A stretch of 64,000 nt of DNA from contig NC_092345.1 of the NCBI RefSeq assembly GCF_963676685.1, positions 72,912,001 to 72,976,000 on the forward strand, in the 5' to 3' direction. Under the pieces are notes generated by a model that worked only from the letters and a program-made list of their open reading frames with translations, had not been told where the DNA came from and did not search any database. The stretch is from Mytilus edulis (taxonomy: Eukaryota). Made by a program: the position numbers and the translations under genes. Position 1 is the stretch's first letter. Each line of letters begins with the position of its first letter. Positions 1 through 45,982 of this stretch are shown one piece after another.

Positions 1-1183
1 ATGTTAAATTCTATACTCATCTTTGCGTGTTAAATTTTGACGTTAAAATTGAATAATTTCAACTATCAACATTTTGGGCTTTGAAAATTAAAATATTGCA
101 AAAAAATACTTTTTAAATGCCCTAATATATCATTTATTATGTACTAAAAGCAATAGAGTACTCATTTGATTTATCAGAGTTAGCATCATTATTCAAAAGT
201 CAAATTTATATCAGCCTGGGCCTAAAAATTGAGGTTTTTCAATGAAAGGGGGCCTTACATGAAGATGTAATATTTTCCAGCAATTTTAAATTTGTGAAGC
301 TTTTTGGTTATAAATAATCCTTACATATGTATTGAATGTACTTTAAATGGAAAGAAAAGTCACAAATAACACATCATATTAGTTTAAAAGGGTCTTAAGC
401 CAAGTAAGACTGGAAAAAAATAAGGGTCAATTTAGGCCGTGCCACATATTTACATTAAAAAATGCATATTGAGGCTATAAGAAATAAAAAATTGTGTCTT
501 TTTTATCATTTCTATACTCATGTGATATGATACAACAAATCTGAGCACAAAAAGGCTCTTGCAATTAACTTTTCTTACAGACAGTATGGTCTGATACAAA
601 GATTTTTGCCTTTTTAATGAAAAACTTGATTGTAATTTTAGTCTCAACAGGCTTATATTTAAACCACTTGCTATCCTACAGAAGAAAAGAGAGATATTAT
701 GTGAGATGGAACAGGTACAATAGACATTGTAAAGTGCTTTTGATACAAATTTAGTGAGGTCTTTATTGTGGACTTCAAATTTTATGTACCAAGAACCCCA
801 CTTTTGACTTCATCCAAACAGGGCGTTAGACAAGGGTCATTTATACAACACATTTTGTACATATTGTCTGAGATAATCTTCTTTTCTGTAGATTCTGAGT
901 TCAAAAACAAGTAAAAGAACTAGATAAAGGCATAGAAACACAAGTATTGACACATGAAAGCCTGTCAGATAGAAAGTCAGGATGCCATGTATGCATCAGT
1001 ATTGAAAAAGCCTTGAAATGCCTATTTTGACCATAAAATGCCAAAATTGGTCATTTTTGCAGATATTCTATTAAATAAAAGTTTAAATCCTTTAGTTTCA
1101 TGCTATTTGACAAATTGACACCACCAAATCATTTAGGGAAGATGCCAAAGTACAGATTCTATATTTACAGACTTCACCTCTTA

Positions 1184-1634
1184 GGTCCGAGAACACAATT
1201 AATTCGTAGTGCATTTCTTTTAGAACATAAATGAAAATTAAAAAATTCCCACCTGCGCTTTCTCAATGAAATTTTTACAGTGTGTTGTACTACTTTTGGG
1301 ACAAATTATATCAAAATTATAGAAAACTTCATCGCCTCTAACTCAAAATATGGACAATTTTGTGTTTAGGGTGTCTTGAAATCTTTTGACAGCTTCCGAA
1401 GTGCTAATTTTTAACCTTTTTCAGCTGGACCAAATCACTACTTTTCTGTAAAATTCTGGACCCAAATTTTTTTACAGTGTAATTTCACCCCCCTACTTAC
1501 AATTTGAGGCATTAAACATGGAGAAATAAATTTGGAAGAGGTATAAAAATTATTGGCAAGTAACCCACTGTTAACACTAGGGACTATATTCGTGAACAAC
1601 GAAAATCAAGGGACGACAATTGTGGTCTCGGACC
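1184..1634. mobile_element. MITE-like element with 17-bp terminal inverted repeats
   Basis: ggtccgagaacacaatt (1184-1200) and aattgtggtctcggacc (1618-1634) are inverted repeats with one mismatch; noncoding interior; no clear TSD. Confidence 0.6.
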
Positions 1635-2157
1635 AGAACTGAGTTAGTATCTGTATGTAATTACGTTACTAGGAAATCACTATCACACATCCTTTTACTT
1701 TACATTTCCACACATGATTTGATCAATAAAAATGATACATTAGGAGCACTAAAGTTATACATAAGAAAGTGTTCAAAGTTCAAAGTGTTAATTGAGTTAA
1801 AATTCTTTACTGCAGCAGCTGAACGTTGTCTAGTGGGTTGTCGGACGGCTTGTACAGTTTAAAAATTTGCAATAACTTTGTAAAAATTTTATTTGAGAAA
1901 AATGTTATTTTCATTATTAATCCATCAAAGACAATTCATATAAAAATCAGTGATATCAAAGATTTCAAATAATCAGCAATCAAAATTCAATCAACAGTAA
2001 TTAAAAGTAATTATAAAATAAAGTGTAACAATGCATCCTAGAATTTTATTTCATTAATATTCTGTATTTAACTTTTAATAGATATACATAAATTTTAATA
2101 TATATTTCTTTCATTAATGTAACGTATCCATTGTACATATCATATTAAAATGAAAAT

Positions 2158-2258
2158 AGGGCGAACGAACCCAGGGCGAACGGATTACCAGGGCGAACAA
2201 ACTCAGTGCGAACGAACCTAGGGCGAACATGTAATCAGGGCGAACGATCCCGATACCA
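2158..2258. repeat. Cluster of (A)GGGCGAAC motifs, probable terminus of a foldback-type TIR element
   Basis: Six GGCGAAC-like motifs in about 100 bp; related motifs bound the element at 55454-56147. Confidence 0.5.
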
Positions 2259-2700
2259 TAAATGTCGCTACGGCGATACCAGTGGTATATTTTGTAGCCA
2301 TTGTTTATAAATTACTATCTGAACCATCAGTCTTGCTCTGATCTTTCAATGGCGACAAGGATACAAAACAAAGAAGGAAGCAGTATTTAGTGTAAATAAA
2401 GAACTTCTGGGATACGCAACTGTACTGCGTACTGGTTTGATTTCCACATGACTGAGTTAAATAAAAACAAATCTCCAAAAACACCATAATTAATTATGTT
2501 AACTACATGTAGCACAGCCAAATAATATAAATGACAATTTTTACAGCTTTCTGATGTGAATATCATGAATATAGAAATATGAACGCCTTTCTTTAAGCAA
2601 CAGCAAAAATCTACTACATTTTTAAATTTAACATGTATCGAAGTGAAGTACTTGAACTCTTGCATGTGCCAAGTACACACGTCACTTGTCCATTGTCAGT

Positions 2701-2826
2701 AGTACTAGTTCAAACAGTTATGACGTCTTGAAAGGCTATTATATTTTTTGGTTGACGCTATCAATGTAAGGGGTAAAAAAAAAATGTGATCTATAGCCTT
2801 TCAAGACGTCATAATTATTTGTACTG
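2701..2826. mobile_element. Small palindromic MITE with 9-10 bp target duplication
   Basis: 22-bp inverted arms ttatgacgtcttgaaaggctat / atagcctttcaagacgtcataa; flanked by direct repeat cattgtcagt at 2691-2700 and 2827-2836. Confidence 0.7.
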
Positions 2827-3958
2827 CATTGTCAGTAAAATGCTCTAAGGACGAAGATTATACTGAGCATATTTTTAAGGATGACTAAAAGAAACTTTGC
2901 ACGCATGCCATGTATTGTTGTTTTATAAATTTGAAAACCTCTGACCAATTTTTCTTAAACTTTTAATGATTATGAAGGATATTTAGATGTTCTAGGTTAT
3001 AGGATTTTCTGTCTATTTATTCATTCATTGAAAAGTGGTTTCAACAAAACCGAAAATTAATCCTGCTTTAATTTGTGCCCAGTACATGTAGGTCTGTAAT
3101 TATACATGACAAGAGGATTTTTTGTATGCGGGACATGTAAAATTACATAAAGTAATTAAAAATTAAAGTACAACTTTAGAAAAATATTGTTAAACAATGT
3201 ACATTGTAGGTTACTACCCAGCACTGTTGACTTAGATCTGCCTTTTTAAAATTATTGATGAATGTTTCACTGCAATCAAAAATTAACACTTCAAACCAGC
3301 GCAGTCTATGTGAAATTTCATGTATATTTTTAACTAAATTTTGATGTTTAAAAGACTTTATGTGTTCAGGTTTAACTGATTTACAGGCATGACAGGTGCA
3401 ATACTTTATGGAAGAAATATATCCGTGAACAATTCCAAAATGTATTCCTGATCTTAAGTCATTCTAAACTGACATCCTTTTTTGCTGGATGTTCTAAAAA
3501 ATTTCACTTAGGCTGCCAAGGTTTCACAAATAACTTTGCTTGCATGTCTGATTATTTTTTTTTTTTATTTAACATGTTTAAATATCCAACAAAGATCTGT
3601 TACTGCTGGATATAAATGATGTTTTGAACCCCATTGACTGTTCATAAAAATGTTGTGTAACATATTTAAAGTGGTTATAAGTACAAAATTAATTTTTGAA
3701 CAACCCCAAAAAAAATTTGCATTGTATTATGGTATGATGTTTTAGTCGTCGTCCCAAGACACATTTAGTTTTTTGAACAATAACTTAAGTTTAAGTGAAT
3801 GGATCTCTATAAATTTTTAAGAGAAGGTTTCTATATACCTATATATAATTATCATTGAATTTGACCATTGTTGACACCATATCATTTAATAAGGGATAAA
3901 TATATATACAAATGTAAATTTGCATGTTTGCATGAGTTTTTTTTTTGTTCTTTACAGT

Positions 3959-6023
3959 ATGGATGATACCTGCACAAGTAGAAAACAATACAGAAAAGAA
4001 TACAAGAGACAGTGGATAGCTGCTTCAAGAGCTTTGAGGCAGTCGTCTAGTCATGCTATTACCCAAGAACACTTATCTGACAATTACAACAGTGATGTTG
4101 AGCATCACTTCAATCATGAACAAGAAGTTGAAGATGTGGACAGCCTTTGTAGTTCATCATTCAATACTTGTCCACAGTTGGCGTCGCATGAACCAGAAGA
4201 AATTGTTTCAGTGTCAGATAACAGTTTTCCTACAATTGATCTTGAAGAAGATGATTCTGATTTGTTTCACTTTCATTCAATAACCACAGACATAGAAAAT
4301 ATTTTGGACTCTGATGAAGAAGACTTTGAAAAAGATACTATTTTAGCAAATGATCTTGCTCAATGGGTGAATGAAAATTCAATTGAACATAATGCTGTTG
4401 ATGCTCTTCTACATTGTAGGTGTCTTAAAAAAGCATGGACACTCTTCATTGCCATTGACTGCCAGAACATTGTTAGGAACTATGAAAAATGTGACAACAG
4501 AAATTAAATCAGGCATGGAATATATTTTTTTTGGTATAGTTAAACAGCTGCAATCGTGTTATTCTTCGCTGTCAGAAGAAAAACAGAGTGAATTGTCAGA
4601 AGTTAGCTTATCATTCAATATTGATGGTCTGCCATTGTTCAAAAGCACTAACACATCTCTGTGGCCTGTCATTTGTAAGGTTCACATCAAGCCTGTTCAA
4701 ATTTTTCCAGTTGCCTTAACATTAGGAAGATCTAAGCCATCAAATCTAGATTTTTTGAGAGAAACTATAAGAGAATTAGACAATGTACTTCAAAATGGAT
4801 TTCCTTCTGGTAATCGCACTATTAAAGTGAATTTGAAAGGCATAGTGTGTGATGCTCCTGCTAGAGCCTTTGTTAAAGGAACTAAACTATACTGCGGCTA
4901 CTATGGCTGTGATAAATGTGCCCAAAAAGGAAATTGGATTGGTAGGATGACTTACCAAGATATTAATAACTTGACCTTAAGAACAAATGAAACATTTAGA
5001 AACTCTTTAAATCAAGAACATCACAATTATCTCTCTCCATTTTGTGATTTACCAATGGACAAATTAGACATGATTAAACAGTTTCCTTTAGATTACATGC
5101 ACCTAGTATGTCTTGGTGTAATGAAGAAGTTACTTTTAACTTGGAAAAGAGGCAAATTGGATGTTAGACTGTCCAATCAACAAGTTCAAGAAATAGGTCG
5201 CAAACTAGTTAGATTACGATCATTTGTTCCTGAATTTTTTGCCAGAAAACCAAGAAACATGGATGAAATTGATCGATGGAAAGCCACTGAATTCAGGCAG
5301 TTTCTTCTGTACACTGGCAAAATTGTCTTGAAAGACATTTTAAGGTCAGATATGTATAAGAATTTCATGGCATTAAGTGTTGGAATATCAATATTGGTTT
5401 GTTCAAGTTCAGTCCAAAATCATGCTGACTATGCACACAATCTGCTCGAGTATTTCGTTGAAAGTGCAAGAATAATTTATGGTCCAGAGTTTTTGGTTTA
5501 CAATGTACACAGCTTACTTCATATTACAGACGAAGCTAAAGAATATGGAAATTTAGATGAATGTTCAGCATTTGCCTTTGAAAACTATTTACAGAAATTA
5601 AAAAAAATGGTAAGATCAGGAAGGAGTCCCATGGTACAAATTGTGAAAAGATTAGATGAGCTGGAAAAATTCAATAGTACCAAGAGAGAAGAAAGTTTTC
5701 GAAGGTCAAGTGTTCTAAAATTTAAACAACCAAACAATGCTTTTGTCATGGACAATAACCAGTGTTGTGAAATCATTTCAAGGACTCAACAAGTTGATCC
5801 AAATGATCCTGAAAAATTATTGTTGCTGTGTAGAGTTTATGAAAGATCAGAACCACTTTTCCGTGCACCTTGCGATTCAAGACTGATTGGGGTTTATAAA
5901 GCCTCACCAAGAAATACTAGGATGAAGCTCCTGTCACCTGACAAGCTGGGCAAAAGGGCAATGCTCATAGATATGGACCAGAATGAACCAGTAGCATTTT
6001 TAACTATACTGCATGAAATGTAA
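3959..6023 (+). pseudogene. EnSpm/CACTA-type DDE transposase, frameshifted by a 7-nt insertion (685 aa if repaired)
   Basis: Motifs FNIDGLPLFKS, LWPV, CDAPARAFVK, GYYGCDKC, FPLDYMHLVCLGVMK, RWKATEFRQFLLY, VYNVHSLLH and SAFAFENYL are typical of animal EnSpm transposases. ORFs 3920..4507 and 4371..6023 join as ...HNAVDALL-GVLKKHG... when 4412-4418 is removed. ATG 3959 follows acceptor tttacag. Confidence 0.88.
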
Positions 6024-6670
6024 TGTGAGTAAGTAAAAGTGAATAGAGCTAATATATATCTCCATTATAATATACATAATTACATTTGACATGTTAAAAA
6101 TTTACTGTACATGTAGTAAAAACGTCAAATTTCTTTTTCAATCAGACAAACTCAAATTCAAATTGTTTGGCACAGACTGTGTGTGTGTGTTTATTTATAA
6201 CATGTATGCAAGACTTGTCAAAGCTCTACCCACAGAACTAAATCTCCAACTGGTGAGACAAGCAAATTACTCCGTAATAAATGTGTTTTCCCCAACGATA
6301 ACATGGTTAAGTGCTGAAAGAAAAGGGTACATTGTACCAAATCATGTAAATTTGCATGTTCATGTACATTTTTTTAGATAGACATGTACAAGTATTAGTT
6401 ACAGAAACATGCATGTATGTGTAATAGTGTAGAGAGCATGGTACAAATGTACATGTAGATAATACTAACACTTAAATGGAAAGCATTGTGCATTAAAGAA
6501 TGGGCAAGAAGATGATTTATATGTCATGTATGTGATGTGAAGTACATTGTATTATGCAGATGAAATAGATTCTATCAATGTAGCCACCATGAGCTGAAAC
6601 ATCATTTATTTGTATTTAATTGTACATGTTATTCAGTATTTAACTAGTTTTACTTTTCATTATCTTTCAG

Positions 6671-9600
6671 ATGTCCAACCATAATGTGTATGTTGTTGTT
6701 GAGTTTCTAAGAGAAAAATCAGTTGAAGTGGTGCACTTATCATGGCTCGAAGGATCTGGAGAGGTAATATAATGTTTGTAACTTTTAAAACATTCTTTTA
6801 AAAAAATAACTGTACAATGTATACTTTTTCATACATCCTTTATAGTATTAGTACAGAAGTTTTCCTCAGTGTTTGTACTGCCGGTCACCAAGTTTCTAAA
6901 TCACCTCCTGTTCATAATTACTTTAACACCTGTCTACAGTTCAGTTTATGAACATCTTAGTGTATTATAATTTTATGTTGAAAAACTAGATTTTCACTAC
7001 ATACTATACTTTTGTGTATTCATTTATTTTTGTTGATTGGCTGAAGTCTCTACAAGGCTATAGAAATTTTGTATTAGTTGAATATTGAATTTCATGGTTC
7101 TCCAGTCCAGGAAAAAGGTAATATCAAGCTTACAATTATCTGTGTCAAAAGTCTGATGTGAAAATCAACTATTGTGTTGATAAATTATGAGTTTGAGATT
7201 TGTTTACTTTATATTTCTAGGATGCAGTTTGTTACTGGCCCCCAACCACAATAAATCTTGCCCAAAGAATTAGAAGAGGAGAGATACCAGACAAGGAAAG
7301 GTGGATCGCCCATCCTATTAGAACTTTTCATCATACAGGTAAACAAATTGATGGTCTAGAATACAGTTTATCAGGGAAGGATATATATATATATACTTTT
7401 TTTAAACTTGGGGCATAGACAGAAATTTTACATAGAATTAAGGTAGATCACAAGTATATATTTTTTGAGACAGAATTTTTTCATAATTTACCAAAATGAA
7501 GATTTTATTATGCTCTTTTCAAAAATTTAATAAAAAGTATGGGTCACCGTGCTATTTTTCAAGCTATGGGTCGTTGAAAATTGCCAAAATTTGGTTAGTT
7601 TGTTCATGAAAAAACACATTAGTGTGCATAAAAAAAATTCTATGAGGTAGAATTATGAAATAAATTGTGAGAAGAAAGGTTTCATAATATGTTTTAAGAA
7701 AATAAAAAGAAAACATGGTGTCACCGAACTTGTTTTCTTGCTACAAGTAAAAATAAAAAATTTCCCTATTAGCCCAGTATAAATTTTGTACTAAAAGAGT
7801 TATTTCCCCTTAAATGGCTCATTTGAAAAAAAATAATTTTTATACCAAAAAAATTGATATTTGTTAAAATATTTTGAATAATACAATTAATTAAGAATTT
7901 GTCTTCAAATAGAAAAAATAGTCTAACTATTGAATTGCCAATCTGTCTCCAAATTTGCAGATTTAGGCAAATAATTAGACCGATTTTGTACTGCGATTGT
8001 GCAATTCAAGATGGCGGTATACCATGAATCTACCTTAAGAAGATATATGGCAAGAAAGCCAATGAGACAACTCTCCATCCAATATATATATATAGACTAG
8101 TTAATATAGACTAGTTAAGACATACATACAAGTATTGTATAACCATGCATGGTTATTGATTATGTTCTCACTTTATTGTTTAAAGTTCTTACATGTATTT
8201 CATTCATGTCTTCTTTTTTTTTAAAGTAAAAGACAATCATTTTTATATATGAACAAGTAAATTGTTAATACTTATATGTTCATTTACGTTTTAACAGATG
8301 ACTATGATAAAGCAGATCAATACTGCAAAAAGTTTGAAGTTACGAGTAATGTCGAGTCAGAAATAGAGCAGGAAGTGGCACAGGGAAGAGTAATAAGTAA
8401 GCCTGACAGATTAATCTCAGATGATTCTGATGAAAATAATAGAGGTTGGTATATTTGGTGAAAAGCTATTTTTATGTCTTCAAAAATATTTTCAAAAGTA
8501 ACTCACATGCTTTATTAACCATGTATTACACATGCATAAAATTCTCTATAGCTGTTTAGACACTTAATCATAAAATGCAAAATGATTTCATGCTAAATAA
8601 AACAAGTGCAACTCTTATTTGAAATGAGTCTGCAATTACTTGTACTTTAATATTGTCACAAAACAATAGTTTTAATTTTATCTTCAAAATTGAAAGAAAT
8701 CCCTCAGATGGCTAAGCAATTTTCCGTTTTAAAATCGTTTCATTTTTAACTGTTGCCTTTTTGAATGTTCATGGACGTTTTAGAATAATGGGAAGAAAAT
8801 TCATGAAGTAAGTGAGATTTAACAGTCAAAACAAGTTAATTGAGTGAATTTTTGACATCGTTTTATTTTTATACATGTAAAGGACACCAAACTTTGAAGT
8901 TATCTCAAAATGACTAAAATTATGTTAAAATTTGCTAGATCCTTGTTCATGTGATCATTCATAGCACAGCTGTTGATTCTCTAATTTATTTGTAAAATTT
9001 CTTTCAGAAGAGCAGGATAATGAAAAATTACCAGACTTAAGCTTGCATGTACAAAAGCAGAGAAGGTTAAAAAAAAAAAGACAGCGTGAAGAAAGAGATT
9101 CTGACAGTAACGATGGTATGTTTTCCTATTCCCACCCTTATAATGAGTCTCATTTTCTACCAGACTCTTACACAATTGTGCACCATTCATATCAGCTTAA
9201 ATTATAGCAGTGATGTTTATGGTGAGGGTTGGACTTTCCTATGTTAGTCTTAATAGAATTCTTATTTCATCCTATTTTACACTCTGTAATCTGTTACACA
9301 TGCTCTTTTGTCAGGTTGTTGTCTCTTACATTTTCCCCATGACCCATATGGCCCAGATCTAGAGGTTTTTGTGCATACAAAAAGGTGCAATTTTTGTATA
9401 GGATATGTAATACATCCTTGAGATAAGGCATAAGCCCAATCTATTGTATACCAAGATTTGATGGTTTATCCGAAATAATAGACTTCCATATTTTTTTAGG
9501 GGGTCTCACAAATTTAACTTATCATATGGTTAAGCATTAGAAATGAATGATATATGATTATATTCAATGGCATTTTGGTGTTATTATTGATATAAAATGT

Positions 9601-12600
9601 ATATTGTAGAAGAAAGTGTACAGGAACCAAGGAAAAAACTTCCAGCTGCACCCAAGGCACCTATATTTGTACCAGACAGTGATGGGTCAAGGACACAGAA
9701 CTCAAGTCCTACATGTAGGCCTGATGAATCTAGGTTAATATCACCTAATAGAGATGCACATGTATCAGGAGGACTTAACTCAAGTCCGACGTGTAGGCCT
9801 GATCAATCTAGCCAATCTAGGTTTATTTCACCTAATAGAAATGTACAGGTATCAAGAGGACTTAACTCAAGTCCTACATGTAGGCCTGATCAGTCATCGG
9901 TGGTTACACCAAATAGAGATGTCTCAAAAAGACAGGATTCAGCATATAGGCCTGTTCCATCTACAAGTGGTCGATCAAGACAAGACTCCTCATGTAGTAA
10001 GTGTTCTATGGCATTTTTATGATGTATGTATCATTCTAGAGACATACATTTATCATGTTTATGTAATGAAGAGCACTTTTAACTCTTTTAAATAGAAAAT
10101 TATTTTATTATCAAGTAAAATGTGACAAGCTTGTGAATGCAATGATTTAGTACTCACATTTTCAAAAATAAAAATCACATTTTGGTCTGAAATCCTGTAT
10201 AGTGTATGTTAAATTTATTGATTTTCTGTAAATAAGGTAAACAAAACTTTATCATGTTTTTAATAACTCCTTATACATGTGTTATAGGTGAACATAATAG
10301 CAGGCAATAATTTCCGATTGTCTAGAACATCATTGCCAGTATGTCTGTCCCAAAAATTTGGGAAGATGACATTAAACCTTCAGTTGATAATATGTTTAGT
10401 TAACAAGACTTGTTGCTTTTATTTCACCCAGTGTAGTTATGTATGAGAAAAAAAACATGCACTTCATACCAAGACAATTGTAGAACTTACTTTCATCATA
10501 GAAATAGGCTATTTGATATTTTTTCCAGCTCAGTAGCTGAATTCTCTAAGATTTTTATCAATTTGTCTTGTAGACTGTCAAACTGTTATTGTTCAAAAAT
10601 TAAGAACATTAGAGGATGGCATCAAAGAAATTAAAACTGCCATTTCACAGCTGGCTGCAACAGGACATGGTGGTGTTGTGGCCACTAGTATTGTGGAAGA
10701 TGTTATTCAGCACCCCATCAACTACATACATGAAATGAGGGACCTTGAGGATAAAATGAAAGATGATCATTTCAAGAATAAACTTGTAAGTTGGTGTCTC
10801 TGATTATTCTTATATGGTTCTTGTTCTCTTTGACATCTCTTTAAAAAGCATTTCTTTTATGTTTTTATTTTTATCAAACTGATGCACTCTAATTTCACTG
10901 ATGTTTTTTACTTTTGAATTCATAGGTTAAATGCATAGAGCATACATAATTGGAGATACAAATTGAAAGAGTCTGTTTATGTATTGTTGTGCAAGTTATC
11001 TTAGAAAATTTAATGTGTCTCAAACATTAAATTTCACGGAAAATACATAAATAAAAACATGACTAAATTGTAATTTTGTAGGTCCAGTATTTGGTGTCAC
11101 AAGGTGGTCACAGCCGTTCAGACTGTATAAGACGGATGATGAAGAAGTGTGGCACTAATCAGTTATGGGCCAAATACAGTTTAAAGGGACAAAAAGGGAA
11201 GGAGGCATTCACAGGTCACCCTTTGTGCAGGATAGTCATGAGTAAGTTGATTACAAAAATATGTGGAACAGCCAGTGCCATTAACATTAGAATAAATTTT
11301 TCATCTGACTTTAATCTCAAAAAGAATTCATGTGATAAATTTGAATATCACATTTCTCACTTATCCATAAACAGAGTGCAACGTTATATAAAGTAATTAA
11401 ATATATAGGACTCAAATCTATGGTGGGTACCAGATCTACGGCAGAGTCTAAATCTATGGTAAATATGACGTCACATCATCCCAAAACTATGTCAGATTTT
11501 TTTAATGTCATAATCAATGGCAAGTTGATATTTCCTATTCTATGGCAGATTTTTGTTGTTTCCAAATATATGGCAAAACTGGGGCTTCTACAGGTACAGC
11601 AGATTTCGTCCTCATCTTTGGGATGATACATGTCAGTAAAATCTTTCTTTAAACCATCCGCAAATTGTTGGCAAGGGAAATACTTTCGACTGGAAGTTCA
11701 AATCTAAAGGTTCAGCTATCTTTGTGGCTGGGACAATTTTATATGGCATTATTCAATTGTGACATTTATTTGTTACCTTTTTTCCCTGGAAAATGATGCA
11801 ATTTAACAATCTCCCATAGTCAAAAACGAAAATCTGGCACAGACTTGATTTGTTTGACATTTGTAACATCACATATGCCATAGATTTGGAATCTGCCATA
11901 AATATGAGTCCCAATTATATATAAAAAAAAGATCGATACAGTTAAATATAATAAGAAAATCTGTAATACTTTTTTCAGAATGTTGTGCAAGAGTGTTTCC
12001 AAAATCAAAGGTTTCAGATATGGAGGAAGTGTTAATTGACTTCCTAAAACAGGCCCCGCACAAGCCAGGAGGACCAAAATATAAGGTATTTTTCGATTGA
12101 ATAGAATATCTTTTACATTTATCTGAAAGGCTTATTTATTTAAAAGTATATTTTTTGCAATTTGAATACTTAGATAAGACAATTTTTGCGCCTGTCCCAA
12201 GTCAGGAGCCTCTGGCCTTTGTTAGTCTTGTATTATTTTAATTTTAGTTTCTTGTATATAATTTGGAAATTAGTATGGCGTTCATTATCACTGAACTAGT
12301 ATATATTTGTTTAGGGGCCAGCTGAAGGACGCCTCTCCGGGTGCGGGAATTTCTCGCTACATTGAAGACCTGTTGGTGACCTTCTGCTGTTGTTTTTTTT
12401 TATTTGGTCGGGTTGTTGTCTCTTTGACACGTTCCCCATTTCCATTCTCAATTTTATTGTCATGTTCTTGACAATAAAATTATTGTCTTTATCCTACAAT
12501 TAAAACTTAATGTTTGTAGCATTTGATTTTGACACGTAAAATATTATTTGTTTGTTGCCCATCTTAGAAATTACTTGATATGCAAAAATTGCAGAAGTTT

Positions 12601-13010
12601 TCCTTGATTGATTATACTGTAAATTCAGAAATTATTGCGCACATTTATTATTGCGATTTTGTCATTTTACACTCGAATGCGATTTTAATTTTTACGATTT
12701 TGAGAAAAAGTCATGCTTAATTCAGTTAAAATATTACAAAATGCGAGTTTTAATTATTGCGTTTACAACTCCGTCGCATTATTGGCAATAATAAAAACCT
12801 CGCAATAATTTCTGAATTTACAGTTTTAAATTTGCATACATGAGAGCTTGATTAAAAGGGATTACAACAACTATAACTGGGGCTAGAATTAAATGCTTTA
12901 ATAGGGTGCTTGAAAGTACTGATTTTGTTAACAAATTACTTTTTTTATAATTTCAGAAACCTGCAAGAAAAGGACAGACCATAACACAAGATGAATTAGA
13001 GTCTGAATAA
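6671..13010 (+). CDS. DUF4806 (BEN-like) domain protein, 9 exons, 461 aa; accessory (ORF2/TnpA-like) gene of the EnSpm element
   Basis: Exons 6671-6763, 7221-7338, 8298-8444, 9008-9115, 9610-9996, 10574-10785, 11082-11241, 11979-12085, 12957-13010. All are GT-AG and phase-compatible, giving 1386 nt with no internal stop. N-terminus YVVVEF..SVEVVHLSWL..CYWPP, then an acidic/low-complexity linker and a coiled coil (QKLRTLEDGIKEIK). C-terminus SQGG...IRRMMKK.GTNQLWAKYSLKGQKGKEAF...LKQAP matches the DUF4806 pattern from memory. Confidence 0.8.
7442..8034. mobile_element. Non-autonomous TTAA-target element (Kolobok-like) in intron 2 of the DUF4806 gene
   Basis: TTAA|GGTAGAT...ATCTACC|TTAA; purine termini with a TTAA duplication. 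Confidence 0.7.
12182..12456 (+). repeat. Dispersed high-copy repeat (unclassified)
   Basis: gcgcctgtcccaagtcaggagcctctggcc...gggttgttgtctctttgacac...ccccatttccattctcaatttt; fragments of the tail recur elsewhere, e.g. near 9315 and 32447. Confidence 0.55.
12617..12823. mobile_element. MITE with perfect 23-bp TIRs (Tc1/mariner-like)
   Basis: ctgtaaattcagaaattattgcg / cgcaataatttctgaatttacag; TA on the left flank. Confidence 0.75.
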
Positions 13011-13274
13011 ATAAATGATTTAATGTACCTTGATTCTACTGATTTTAGTCCTGTCAATACTGTTTATTTAAGATGTTCAAAAAACTATATTCCAATTTCT
13101 GCAACAATTGAAGCTTTGGCTATAAACTAGATCATTGATTGACATTATTATGATTATATGTCAAATTCTCGTTTAAAGAGATATGAAATCTCCTTGTCAA
13201 TGCAAGAATTTAACCTTATTGAATTGACTTTGAAGGTAACAGGACCCAGTTTAAACAGTGAGAGGTTGACAAGC

Positions 13275-13535
13275 TTTCAATTCAGTGGTTGTCGTTTGTT
13301 TATGTGTTACATATTTGTTTATCGTTCATTTTTTTTTACATAAATAAGGCGGTTAGTTTTCTCGTTTGAATTGTTTTACATTATCTTATCAGGGTCTATT
13401 ATAGCGGACTATGTGGTATGGGCTTTGATCATTGTTTAAGGTCGTACGGTGACCTATAATTGTTAATGTTTGTGTCATTTTGGTCTTTTGTGGATAGTTG
13501 TCTCATTGGGAATCATGCCACATCTTCTTTTTATA
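13275..13535 (+). repeat. Dispersed repeat family ending ...gagttgtctcattggc..atc.t.ccacatcttcttt
   Basis: Same motif in either orientation at about 8040-8080, 24570-24645, 38300-38670, 50180-50460, 55140-55250 and 63900-64000. Confidence 0.65.
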
Positions 13536-13593
13536 TTTGCTTTGGCATAGTTTTTTTTCTCATAAAGAATATTTTGCCTTTAGAGCTTAAGTT

Positions 13594-13880
13594 GTAATGG
13601 TGAGTGTGTTCGCCTCAACTGAAGAGGTCTTGGGTTAGAACTCTGGCCCTGCCAAACCAATGACAATAAAATTATTATTTGTCGCTTCTTCCCAAATGAG
13701 TTAGAACAAAGACTTGTTGGCCTGTCGGGCTAGAACCAAAAAATCTGGCAAAACATGTTGGTCTATTACAAGACAGGGTTTAGCCCAGTTAGTATTAATT
13801 TCTAATAATATTATCTTCACATTAAGAATATGCATCTGACTTGCCACTGGTCATTAAACAAACAACCAACCATCCATCCA
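13594..13880 (+). mobile_element. Degenerate tRNA-derived SINE
   Basis: A-box/B-box-like head (gtaatggtgagtgtgttcgcct...gggttagaactc) and a simple-repeat tail cttgccactgg...aacaaccaaccatccatcc. Confidence 0.45.
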
Positions 13881-14242
13881 AGCTTATGGAGATGTCGCTT
13901 TTTCATCAATTAAACAGGTGCATTACAAATAAAGAAATGGATGATATACAAAACACTGCACAATCAATTATAAGTTTTTAAACCAAAGTAATGGTGGTAG
14001 CACTAATGCATCATTGTTACACAAATGTGTTAAAAATGTTTTTCAGAGGTTGACAGAAACGTTTTTCATAAAACCTTATTTCAACGTTTTCTGAATGTTC
14101 CATATAACGTTTCTTCAAAATGTTTTTGAAACATTAATAATTGTCTACAAATTTTTATTTTTAAAACGTTTCAATAAAACATTCTAGAAACCAAAACAAA
14201 ACATTTCTAAAACGTTTTTAAAATGTTGAATTGTTTGCTGGG

Positions 14243-14624
14243 TATGCATCAGGGGACAGTAGAACCAGGGGCAACCACAAATTTAGACAGACAAGAGTGA
14301 AGAGAGACGTCTTCTATCACTCATTCTTCCCGAGAACAACAAGAGAGTGGAACAAACTCCCAGAATCAGTAGTGGAGTCCGGATCACTAGAGGACTTCAG
14401 GGCCAGAGTGAACATCATCCCCTGGACCCAACCACACCTCAAATAGACAGCAGGAGAACCAGTGTATATAGTTGTAATTAAGCATATTTTATTGTAAATA
14501 CCATCCAGATTTTCCTGGACTTTTACTTTTGGCCAGAGAGGAGTGGCCTCCTGTCTGTTTGAGATGCGCCCGAGTCAATTACACTTTTATAGAGTTCGAC
14601 TCGTAACCGGGAAGAAGAAGAAGA
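14243..14624 (+). mobile_element. 3' fragment of a CR1/L2-group LINE (RT C-terminus, 3' UTR, (GAA)n tail)
   Basis: Translates as ...TRGNHKF...FYHSFFPRTTREWNKLP..VV...SLEDFR, the conserved C-terminal motif of CR1/L2 ORF2; stop at 14446; gaagaagaagaaga at 14610-14623. Confidence 0.75.
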
Positions 14625-15324
14625 GGAAAACATCAAATTTTGTCCAGATGTGAATGTTTCCGTCAACACTGTTCATTTAATTTAATAGAACATGGGCTTC
14701 ATTTTATTTGAGAGTGCCCTAGATTATAGGCTGGGTATTGATCCGTTTTTTTAATCCAGATCAATCAGACAGGAAAAGAGACAAAAGCTAAGATAAATAA
14801 ATAGAGTTATTCCTCTTTGTACTAGCGATCACTAGCTCTCTCCTTTCCTATGTACATAATTTGTATAATCATGTGAACATATTTGTTCTAAATCACATGT
14901 ATTTATTAACAATCAGTATATATTGCATGAGTTTGTGTGGATATTGTACTCATGAACTTTGTGATTTGTGTTGATGTATATATGGGCCTATTTATTAGGA
15001 ATAAAGTACCGACCGTGCGAGGGCTGCATGTATACTGCAGAAGCCAGTCAACGGGTCGTTAAAAACTTCCATTTGTAATAAAGATATTTGAATATATTGT
15101 TTTGATAGAAAATTAACTTTCTTGTGCTAATATTTTTCTTCTGGTCGCTTCTTTACGCTTATTGTACCTATGTATGTTAATTAGTGAGACCGGTACGAGT
15201 TGGTAAAAATAAGGTACGAGTTGGTTGAGTACGAGTTGGTCGTGTAACTTTTTGTGTTTTTTTTTCTATCTTTTACCTTAAAATGAAGAAGTAATCCGAA
15301 AGACTACGAATGGACAAATAAGAG

Positions 15325-45982
<30,658 letters not shown>

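Follow-up and report, generated by a model that had tools for sequence, protein, structure and literature searches.

In maize, the transposon En/Spm has arrays of subterminal repeats, as has the mussel element described here, and its protein TnpA binds these repeats. Tandem open reading frames (ORFs) and alternative splicing are found in Spm tnpD and in the Schistosoma element SmTRC1; two ORFs in tandem are carried by Spm tnpD and by the SmTRC1 clone B4, with short forms dominating over them, and SmTRC1 has CCC ends and a 2-bp target site duplication (TSD), such that a TnpA-like arrangement in an animal element is already known (PMC1636069). Plant elements have changed between a spliced and a split organization (PMC13547354). 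A survey of Spm regulators (bioRxiv 10.64898/2026.08.24.746577) describes TnpA-like proteins as restricted to flowering plants and the DNA-binding domain (DBD) of animal elements as typically fused, and mentions other, unnamed accessory proteins. Here, we describe an animal element of the EnSpm/CACTA type (TRC; CMC/CMCT clade) with two genes in a stretch of 64,000 nucleotides from Mytilus edulis (the window, G000:C2:72912001-72976000; negative coordinates lie upstream of it and 0 is the base before position 1). A transposase exon is followed by nine exons for a partner protein. New is the evidence from spliced contigs for a junction that places the partner start 1 nt after the transposase stop, together with a spacing of 12–17 nt predicted in four related copies. 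In our literature search, neither a connection of DUF4806/BEN with EnSpm nor such a junction was described; Repbase, PMC159980, PMC3093488, or the figures and supplement of the preprint may cover them.

Results

Splicing of the transposase and partner exons

Four runs were mapped to a second copy of the element on C12, namely the contigs X3 and X6 and the raw RNA runs X21 and X24 (6% and 18% read, respectively). The donor 6024/6025, one base past the transposase stop, is joined to the partner ATG at 6671 in both contig sets (joint 3486-4145), giving a spliced stop-to-ATG spacing of 1 nt (Table 1). One X6 contig of 2015 nt passes from 680 nt of transposase sequence into partner exons. Upstream of the window, a non-coding leader exon covering at least -1278..-1161 is joined by its donor at -1161 to 3958 in X3 (one of the two contig sets). 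Partner introns 1–5 are exact GT-AG joints in contigs of X3 and/or X6; introns 7–8 lie beyond the mapping reference. A full-length leader-transposase-partner molecule would unite two joints that come from separate contigs.

According to the original prediction, both start codons sit directly behind splice acceptors, and both acceptors (3957/3958 and 6670/6671) are used in the contigs. A shared leader spliced to either ORF had also been proposed: the joint from leader to 3958 is present in X3, whereas a common donor is not borne out in these contigs, 6671 being joined to 6024 in X3 and X6. Since the contigs lack a 7-bp insertion of the window copy and the X3 leader has a 13-nt insertion in common with it, transcription must also come from other alleles or copies.

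Database protein models differ at their 5´ ends, which suggests that more than one donor is spliced to the acceptor at 6671. The first four residues of P0002 and P0018 are encoded by 6013-6024, and these models thus use the 6024 to 6671 joint. In P0016 and P0019 (two accessions each), the start is at 6671 and the peptide from the transposase end is missing, which implies other 5´ exons, and P0017 uses a spacer exon at 6202-6252.

Table 1. Features of the element and its surroundings in window coordinates.
Feature	Position	Strand	Remark
Element, part inside the window	1..14242	+	start lies upstream of window
Transposase exon	3958..6024	+	acceptor 3957/3958, ATG 3959, stop 6021-6023, donor 6024/6025
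Intron from transposase exon to partner ATG	6025..6670	+	646 nt here, 658 in C12
Partner exon 1	6671..6763	+	ATG at first base; Tudor-like domain starts
Partner exon 2	7221..7338	+	Tudor-like domain
Partner exon 3	8298..8444	+	
Partner exon 4	9008..9115	+	disordered linker
Partner exon 5	9610..9996	+	disordered linker, three internal repeats
Partner exon 6	10574..10785	+	predicted coiled coil 284-313; DUF4806/BEN starts
Partner exon 7	11082..11241	+	BEN core; loose end of contig
Partner exon 8	11979..12085	+	BEN C-terminal helices
Partner exon 9 to stop	12957..13010	+	AATAAA at 13010
Right end	13993..14242	+	subterminal AACGTT array and terminal inverted repeat, then TA
CCCAGCA	3217..3223	+	left end according to the original prediction; internal, within intron 1
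7-bp insertion	4410..4416	+	transposase frameshift; not in C12 copy nor in X3/X6 contigs
Non-coding insertion of 2203 bp with terminal inverted repeats, intron 1	-568..1635 (in-window 1..1635)		AGAA duplication; not in C12 copy
597-bp insertion, partner intron 2	7438..8034		between TTAA; not in C12 copy

Occurrence in related families

Screening covered the 80 best of 488 metagenome loci and six regions of the mussel's own genome. Of these 86, 16 were excluded since their frame lacked the terminal motif at its end; the remaining 70 formed 48 clusters at 70% identity, here called families. The linked partner is a feature of related transposases, as had been anticipated: its exon 1 lies downstream on the same strand in 42 of the 48 families, and in 26/28 where at least 1.5 kb of downstream sequence is present, the misses being L060 and the truncated C11a. 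Partner intron positions are common to relatives, and transposase and partner distances are correlated (Mantel r 0.63, reached in 0/2000 permutations; 35/42 clusters, host kinship not removed).

These observations bear on the idea that the element carries the partner as mere cargo, or as a gene captured from its host, without a function for the element, as might be suggested by partner-only relics at five other genome sites. The constant position and strand, the common introns and the correlated divergence argue against it, and the relics consist of C-terminal exons only, several of them with right-end arrays. We regard this explanation as highly improbable and as largely refuted by the linkage. 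Partner-only elements that would reveal a leader beside the partner were looked for, but the five regions contained nothing but C-terminal exons; in one of them, the upstream sequence covered was only ~4.6 kb.

Start codons behind acceptors are frequent enough to be a family trait: a YAG acceptor lies no more than 15 nt before the partner ATG in 27/37 cases (59/358 control ATGs) and before the transposase ATG in 18/35. With donors scored by an approximate matrix, a strong donor falls within -15..+45 nt of the transposase stop in 14/48 families, compared to 46/480 (p 3e-4) and 22/159 (p 0.03) in two sets of controls; at the other two thresholds the counts are 17/48 (110/480, 36/159) and 6/48 (22/480, 11/159). 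The predicted stop-to-ATG spacing in four further copies of the own genome is 14 nt (C13), 17 nt (C3), 13 nt (C8), and 12 nt (C11b). It is kept in C3 and C8, where an intron precedes the stop and the stop lies in the partner's first exon. L034 has no intron at this place, two stops being followed by the ATG. In four families, an acceptor lies inside a transposase-partner spacer of 35–66 nt, which is too short for an intron, and here an upstream donor is needed. As a separate observation, partner exons 1–3 are contiguous and intronless in L034 (2386 bp) and L059; the L034 sequence could stem from a transcript or from a copy without introns.

A fusion of the two proteins by read-through was considered and ruled out, as the frames differ among copies (0, +1, +2). 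The same difference in frame is compatible with termination-reinitiation, by which the partner would be made from a dicistronic message that is the main or only one, thereby shielding the message from nonsense-mediated decay and fixing the protein ratio. The acceptor at 6671 is reached from the transposase-end donor in both contig sets and from the leader in none, and the spacing of 1 nt (observed) and 12–17 nt (predicted, in all four other copies), the stop-stop-ATG of L034 and the conservation in C3 and C8 stay within the 20 nt needed for viral re-initiation, a process that rescues from decay (PMC10275272). However, the core UGGGA of termination upstream ribosome-binding sites (TURBS) is not enriched before the stop (4/48 compared to 14/240 control windows), 34/48 families have no strong donor near it, the short spacing may follow merely from ATGs directly behind acceptors, and other 5´ variants exist among the database models. 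On balance, we consider re-initiation as the main route to the partner unlikely.

The two proteins

The nine GT-AG exons encode a partner of 461 aa that is identical to P0017 in 461/461 residues beyond the N-terminal extension of that model and differs from P0019 by two residues. The hidden gene that had been proposed is thus recovered by exon reconstruction, by identity to P0017, and by introns 1–5 in contigs, and as it matches database models it is already annotated, as an uncharacterized protein. In the structure model of P0019, a confidently predicted N-terminal barrel is followed by a disordered linker, a helix (284-313) similar to coiled coils, and a BEN domain. The best fold matches are BEN and Tudor. 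Among the fold matches listed there was no TnpA-like structure, an absence that carries no weight. The BEN domain aligns with BEND6 (Z 10.7, root-mean-square deviation (rmsd) 1.8, 83 aligned) at a predicted local distance difference test (pLDDT) above 90, and the barrel aligns with the Tudor domain of ARID4B at a middling level (Z 5.5, rmsd 3.0, 53 aligned). The top five VIA rows are BEN domains, as are the top eight Foldseek rows, though at E>0.1. The partner is therefore predicted, from the structure model, to be a DNA-binding protein of the Tudor-like, coiled-coil, and BEN type, in keeping with the DUF4806/BEN-like assignment that had been made from the sequence. DUF4806 is matched by 86/120 aligned relatives at E<=0.01, and the DUF4806-type family comprises 3303 representatives at E<=0.001; a DUF4806-BEN connection is mentioned in PMC10789644. 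Pfam searches with single partner exons gave nothing relevant, and a scan of the genome for the DUF4806 family gave no match, the control being likewise empty. Complex prediction with the transposase core and partner residues 1-90, run without alignments, gave no answer either way (score 0.00).

The transposase frame is open in the C12 copy (685 aa from the ATG corresponding to 3959). In the window copy, the 7-bp insertion at 4410 divides it into two frames. Of the intronless transposase originally described, the single large exon holds, and an intact frame in the window copy was rejected. Residues D220, D296, C315, C318, H515, H519, and E539 are invariant in 48/48 aligned relatives. They provide the DDE triad with C(2)C and H(3-4)H between the second D and E that is the signature of CMC (PMC12730594). 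The structure model (pLDDT 93.9) matches RAG1, BbRAGL, and HzTransib (E 9e-9, Z 16.8), and a RAG1/Transib-like DDE fold is predicted. Pfam Transposase_21 does not match the C12-type transposase, is found in 15/48 relatives at E<=0.01, and is above cut-off in the paralog L010; DUF4218 is under cut-off. Residues ~575-682 form a small C-terminal barrel with weak matches to Tudor, KOW, and BAH (Z 5-6). One possibility raised by the models is that this barrel and the Tudor-like start of the partner are relics of a split ancestor.

Ends and copies of the element

The element spans -1945..14242 (16,188 bp), including three insertions, or deletions in the C12 copy, of 2203, 175, and 597 bp. Both ends are imperfect CCC-type inverted repeats with TA on either side. 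The right end with AACGTT-like subterminal motifs was placed correctly by the original prediction, and the five AACGTT in the last 250 bp were reached in 0/5000 Markov simulations. The left end had been placed at 3217, which we reject, since the alignment with the C12 copy continues to -1945 (G000:C2:72910055, 1.9 kb before the window), where a matching CCC-type terminal inverted repeat (TIR), the TA duplication, and an array of five AACGTT in the first 400 bp (p=0.0006) are found. The interior has two AACGTT in 15,538 bp compared to five plus five in the 650 terminal bp.

The C12 copy, found by protein search, is 99.5% identical to the window copy, with 68 substitutions in 13,147 aligned bases (0.52%) over an alignment from -1945 to 14235; its right end is without the last 7 bases. 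At least two copies, these two, have the left end, and C4 carries another fragment of the right end. The 2-bp TA duplication of the window copy breaks one open frame that resumes on the far side and that resembles the end of a long interspersed nuclear element (LINE) reverse transcriptase. As the flanks read as one interrupted frame, the insertion point is fixed. CCC ends and AACGTT arrays are likewise present in the families C13, C11a, and C11b, with target duplications, judged by eye where both ends are in view, of AT in C13 and AA in C11b. The window copy is transposase-dead yet retains both ends, and could be mobilized in trans, the frames of the C12 copy being open. C11a (G000:C11:38720844 region) has an intact transposase and a left end, but neither a partner nor a right array in 18 kb, and is followed by tRNA-like genes.

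Insertions, repeats, and neighboring sequence

The 2203-bp insertion has inverted ends of 17 bp. The 597-bp insertion has GGTAGAT ends and is presumably Kolobok-like. An array of GGGCGAAC units at 2158-2245 in intron 1 is found in both copies, and inverted-repeat pairs at 2707-2825 (33-nt arms), 11424-11913 (52), and 12616-12824 (24) in introns are probably nested miniature inverted-repeat transposable elements (MITEs). Dispersed repeats occupy 12195-12457 and 13279-13536. Differences of 6–7 bp between the copies at 4410, 6067, and 6199 make or abolish TACATGTA-like words; TACATGTA itself occurs 22 times in the window, compared to 3.5 expected. Judged by their sequence, these differences look like excision footprints of a TA-targeting transposon, and the frameshifting insertion at 4410 may be such a footprint. 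A host gene extends from 15322 onward, ~1.1 kb past the right end; its first exon, which had no Pfam match, resembles TMEM245 in our estimate. Tandem arrays at 19263-19577 and 17632-19000 (41-nt and 35-nt repeats) are apparently intronic in the downstream gene. Rfam gave no matches in window positions 1-16000.

Discussion

The explanation that we favor, with some reserve, is an EnSpm/CACTA element with a two-gene message of leader, transposase, and partner, in which the partner likely derives mainly from a skip isoform and likely binds the AACGTT arrays at both ends, in the way of maize TnpA. Its parts differ in strength. One promoter near the left end is quite probable; from it, leader exon, transposase exon, and partner exons would form one Spm-like unit, of which the long dicistronic form would supply the transposase. 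An isoform skipping from leader to partner seems reasonably likely to be present at an appreciable level and would then likely supply most of the helper. We lean slightly toward the partner binding AACGTT as an oligomer, possibly in a manner sensitive to CpG methylation; oligomers of BEN and coiled-coil proteins read unmethylated CpG (PMC11472053). A stop codon upstream of exon junctions makes a message a target for decay (exon-junction rule; also PMC10275272), and the long message would be decay-prone because nine junctions follow the transposase stop. Somewhat doubtfully, the transposase may be kept low in this way unless ribosomes re-initiate one base further on.

Several observations weigh against the favored explanation. 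That X3 and X6 derive from RNA is a guess, in favor of which the exact GT-AG skips speak. The skip junction from leader to 6671 is seen in neither contig set, although contigs drop minor isoforms and cannot show absence, and the X6 partner contig runs unbranched for 680 nt into the transposase, so that most partner mRNA may be of the long form. Indirect support for the skip isoform comes from the database models without the transposase-end peptide and from the four families with an acceptor in a short spacer. The raw RNA runs gave almost no exon coverage, mostly repeat-derived reads, and no junctions. Pfam DUF4806 scores 24.8 bits on P0019, just below the cut-off of 25 (E 2.8e-5), and strong donors near the transposase stop, although enriched, are present in only 14/48 families. 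Finally, X6 depth steps from 3-5 to 14.7 near window position 5345, which could mark an internal start. Such a start would agree with a promoter of the partner's own in the transposase 3´ end or the spacer, the transposase sequence on the contigs then being 5´ untranslated region (UTR). The X6 contig indeed starts ~680 nt inside the transposase with a mean depth above that of upstream pieces, the P0017 exon lies within the spacer, a transposase mRNA of its own could terminate at the AATAAA-type words found at 6276 and 6492, and split genes are known in plants (Arabidopsis SPM2/5/6/9; PMC13547354). Yet the smooth climb of X3 depth (4.4-5-4.7-6.4-10.8) is like that produced by 3´ bias, the depth values are means over whole contigs and cannot reveal a start, and a 5´ UTR made of transposase sequence would hold many upstream ATGs. 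A separate promoter is accordingly regarded as improbable.

A bolder possibility, which we put forward tentatively and as rather unlikely, is that of a widespread lineage with a splicing-built dicistronic mRNA, re-initiation 1–17 nt past a frame of ~685 codons, and an independently arisen TnpA-like helper. Through re-initiation, both production of the helper and evasion of nonsense-mediated decay would depend on translation of the transposase, and the helper, as the animal equivalent of TnpA, would recognize the CpG-containing arrays at the ends. The stop-1-nt-start junction makes re-initiation and decay testable: it offers a small natural system in which to study re-initiation behind a long ORF of a cellular animal mRNA, a situation whose distance rules are described as unknown (PMC10275272), as well as decay-based self-limiting of a transposase. 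In addition, the large orphan DUF4806-type family gains a likely home as a helper gene of animal EnSpm elements.

The mussel element resembles Schistosoma SmTRC1/TRC in its CCC termini, 2-bp TSD, large transposase ORF in a spliced unit, and in the existence of a two-ORF clone. In SmTRC1, transposase-skipping forms dominate and the second protein is without domain assignment (PMC1636069); in the mussel element the long junction is the one observed and the partner is predicted to be of the Tudor-like/coiled-coil/BEN type, and stop-start spacing is not discussed in section 8 of that paper. With maize En/Spm TnpD/TnpA it has in common the organization as one unit, the transposase ahead of the helper exons, and a dicistronic tnpD-type message (PMC1636069; PMC13547354). 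It differs in having CCC ends and a 2-bp duplication instead of CACTA and 3 bp, an intronless transposase, and a helper with a predicted BEN-like fold rather than the tandem helix-turn-helix described for TnpA; the skip isoform was seen in 0/2 contig sets. A start codon no more than 20 nt behind the stop of a long ORF recalls TURBS-type termination-reinitiation (PMC10275272), but core enrichment is missing and the junction is made by splicing.

At the level of the helper, BEND6, BANP, and NACC1 (PDB 7yul, 7yuk, 8yzs) have the BEN fold in common with the partner, and in BANP a coiled coil precedes BEN, as in the partner (PMC11472053); these are host chromatin factors with 9–17% identity to the partner, which is a transposon protein. 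As in the survey of Spm regulators (10.64898/2026.08.24.746577), a DNA-binding module accompanies the catalytic core. In contrast to the fused DBD of its animal pattern, and to its limitation of separate TnpA-like regulators to flowering plants, the mussel lineage keeps a separate helper, and one predicted to have another fold.

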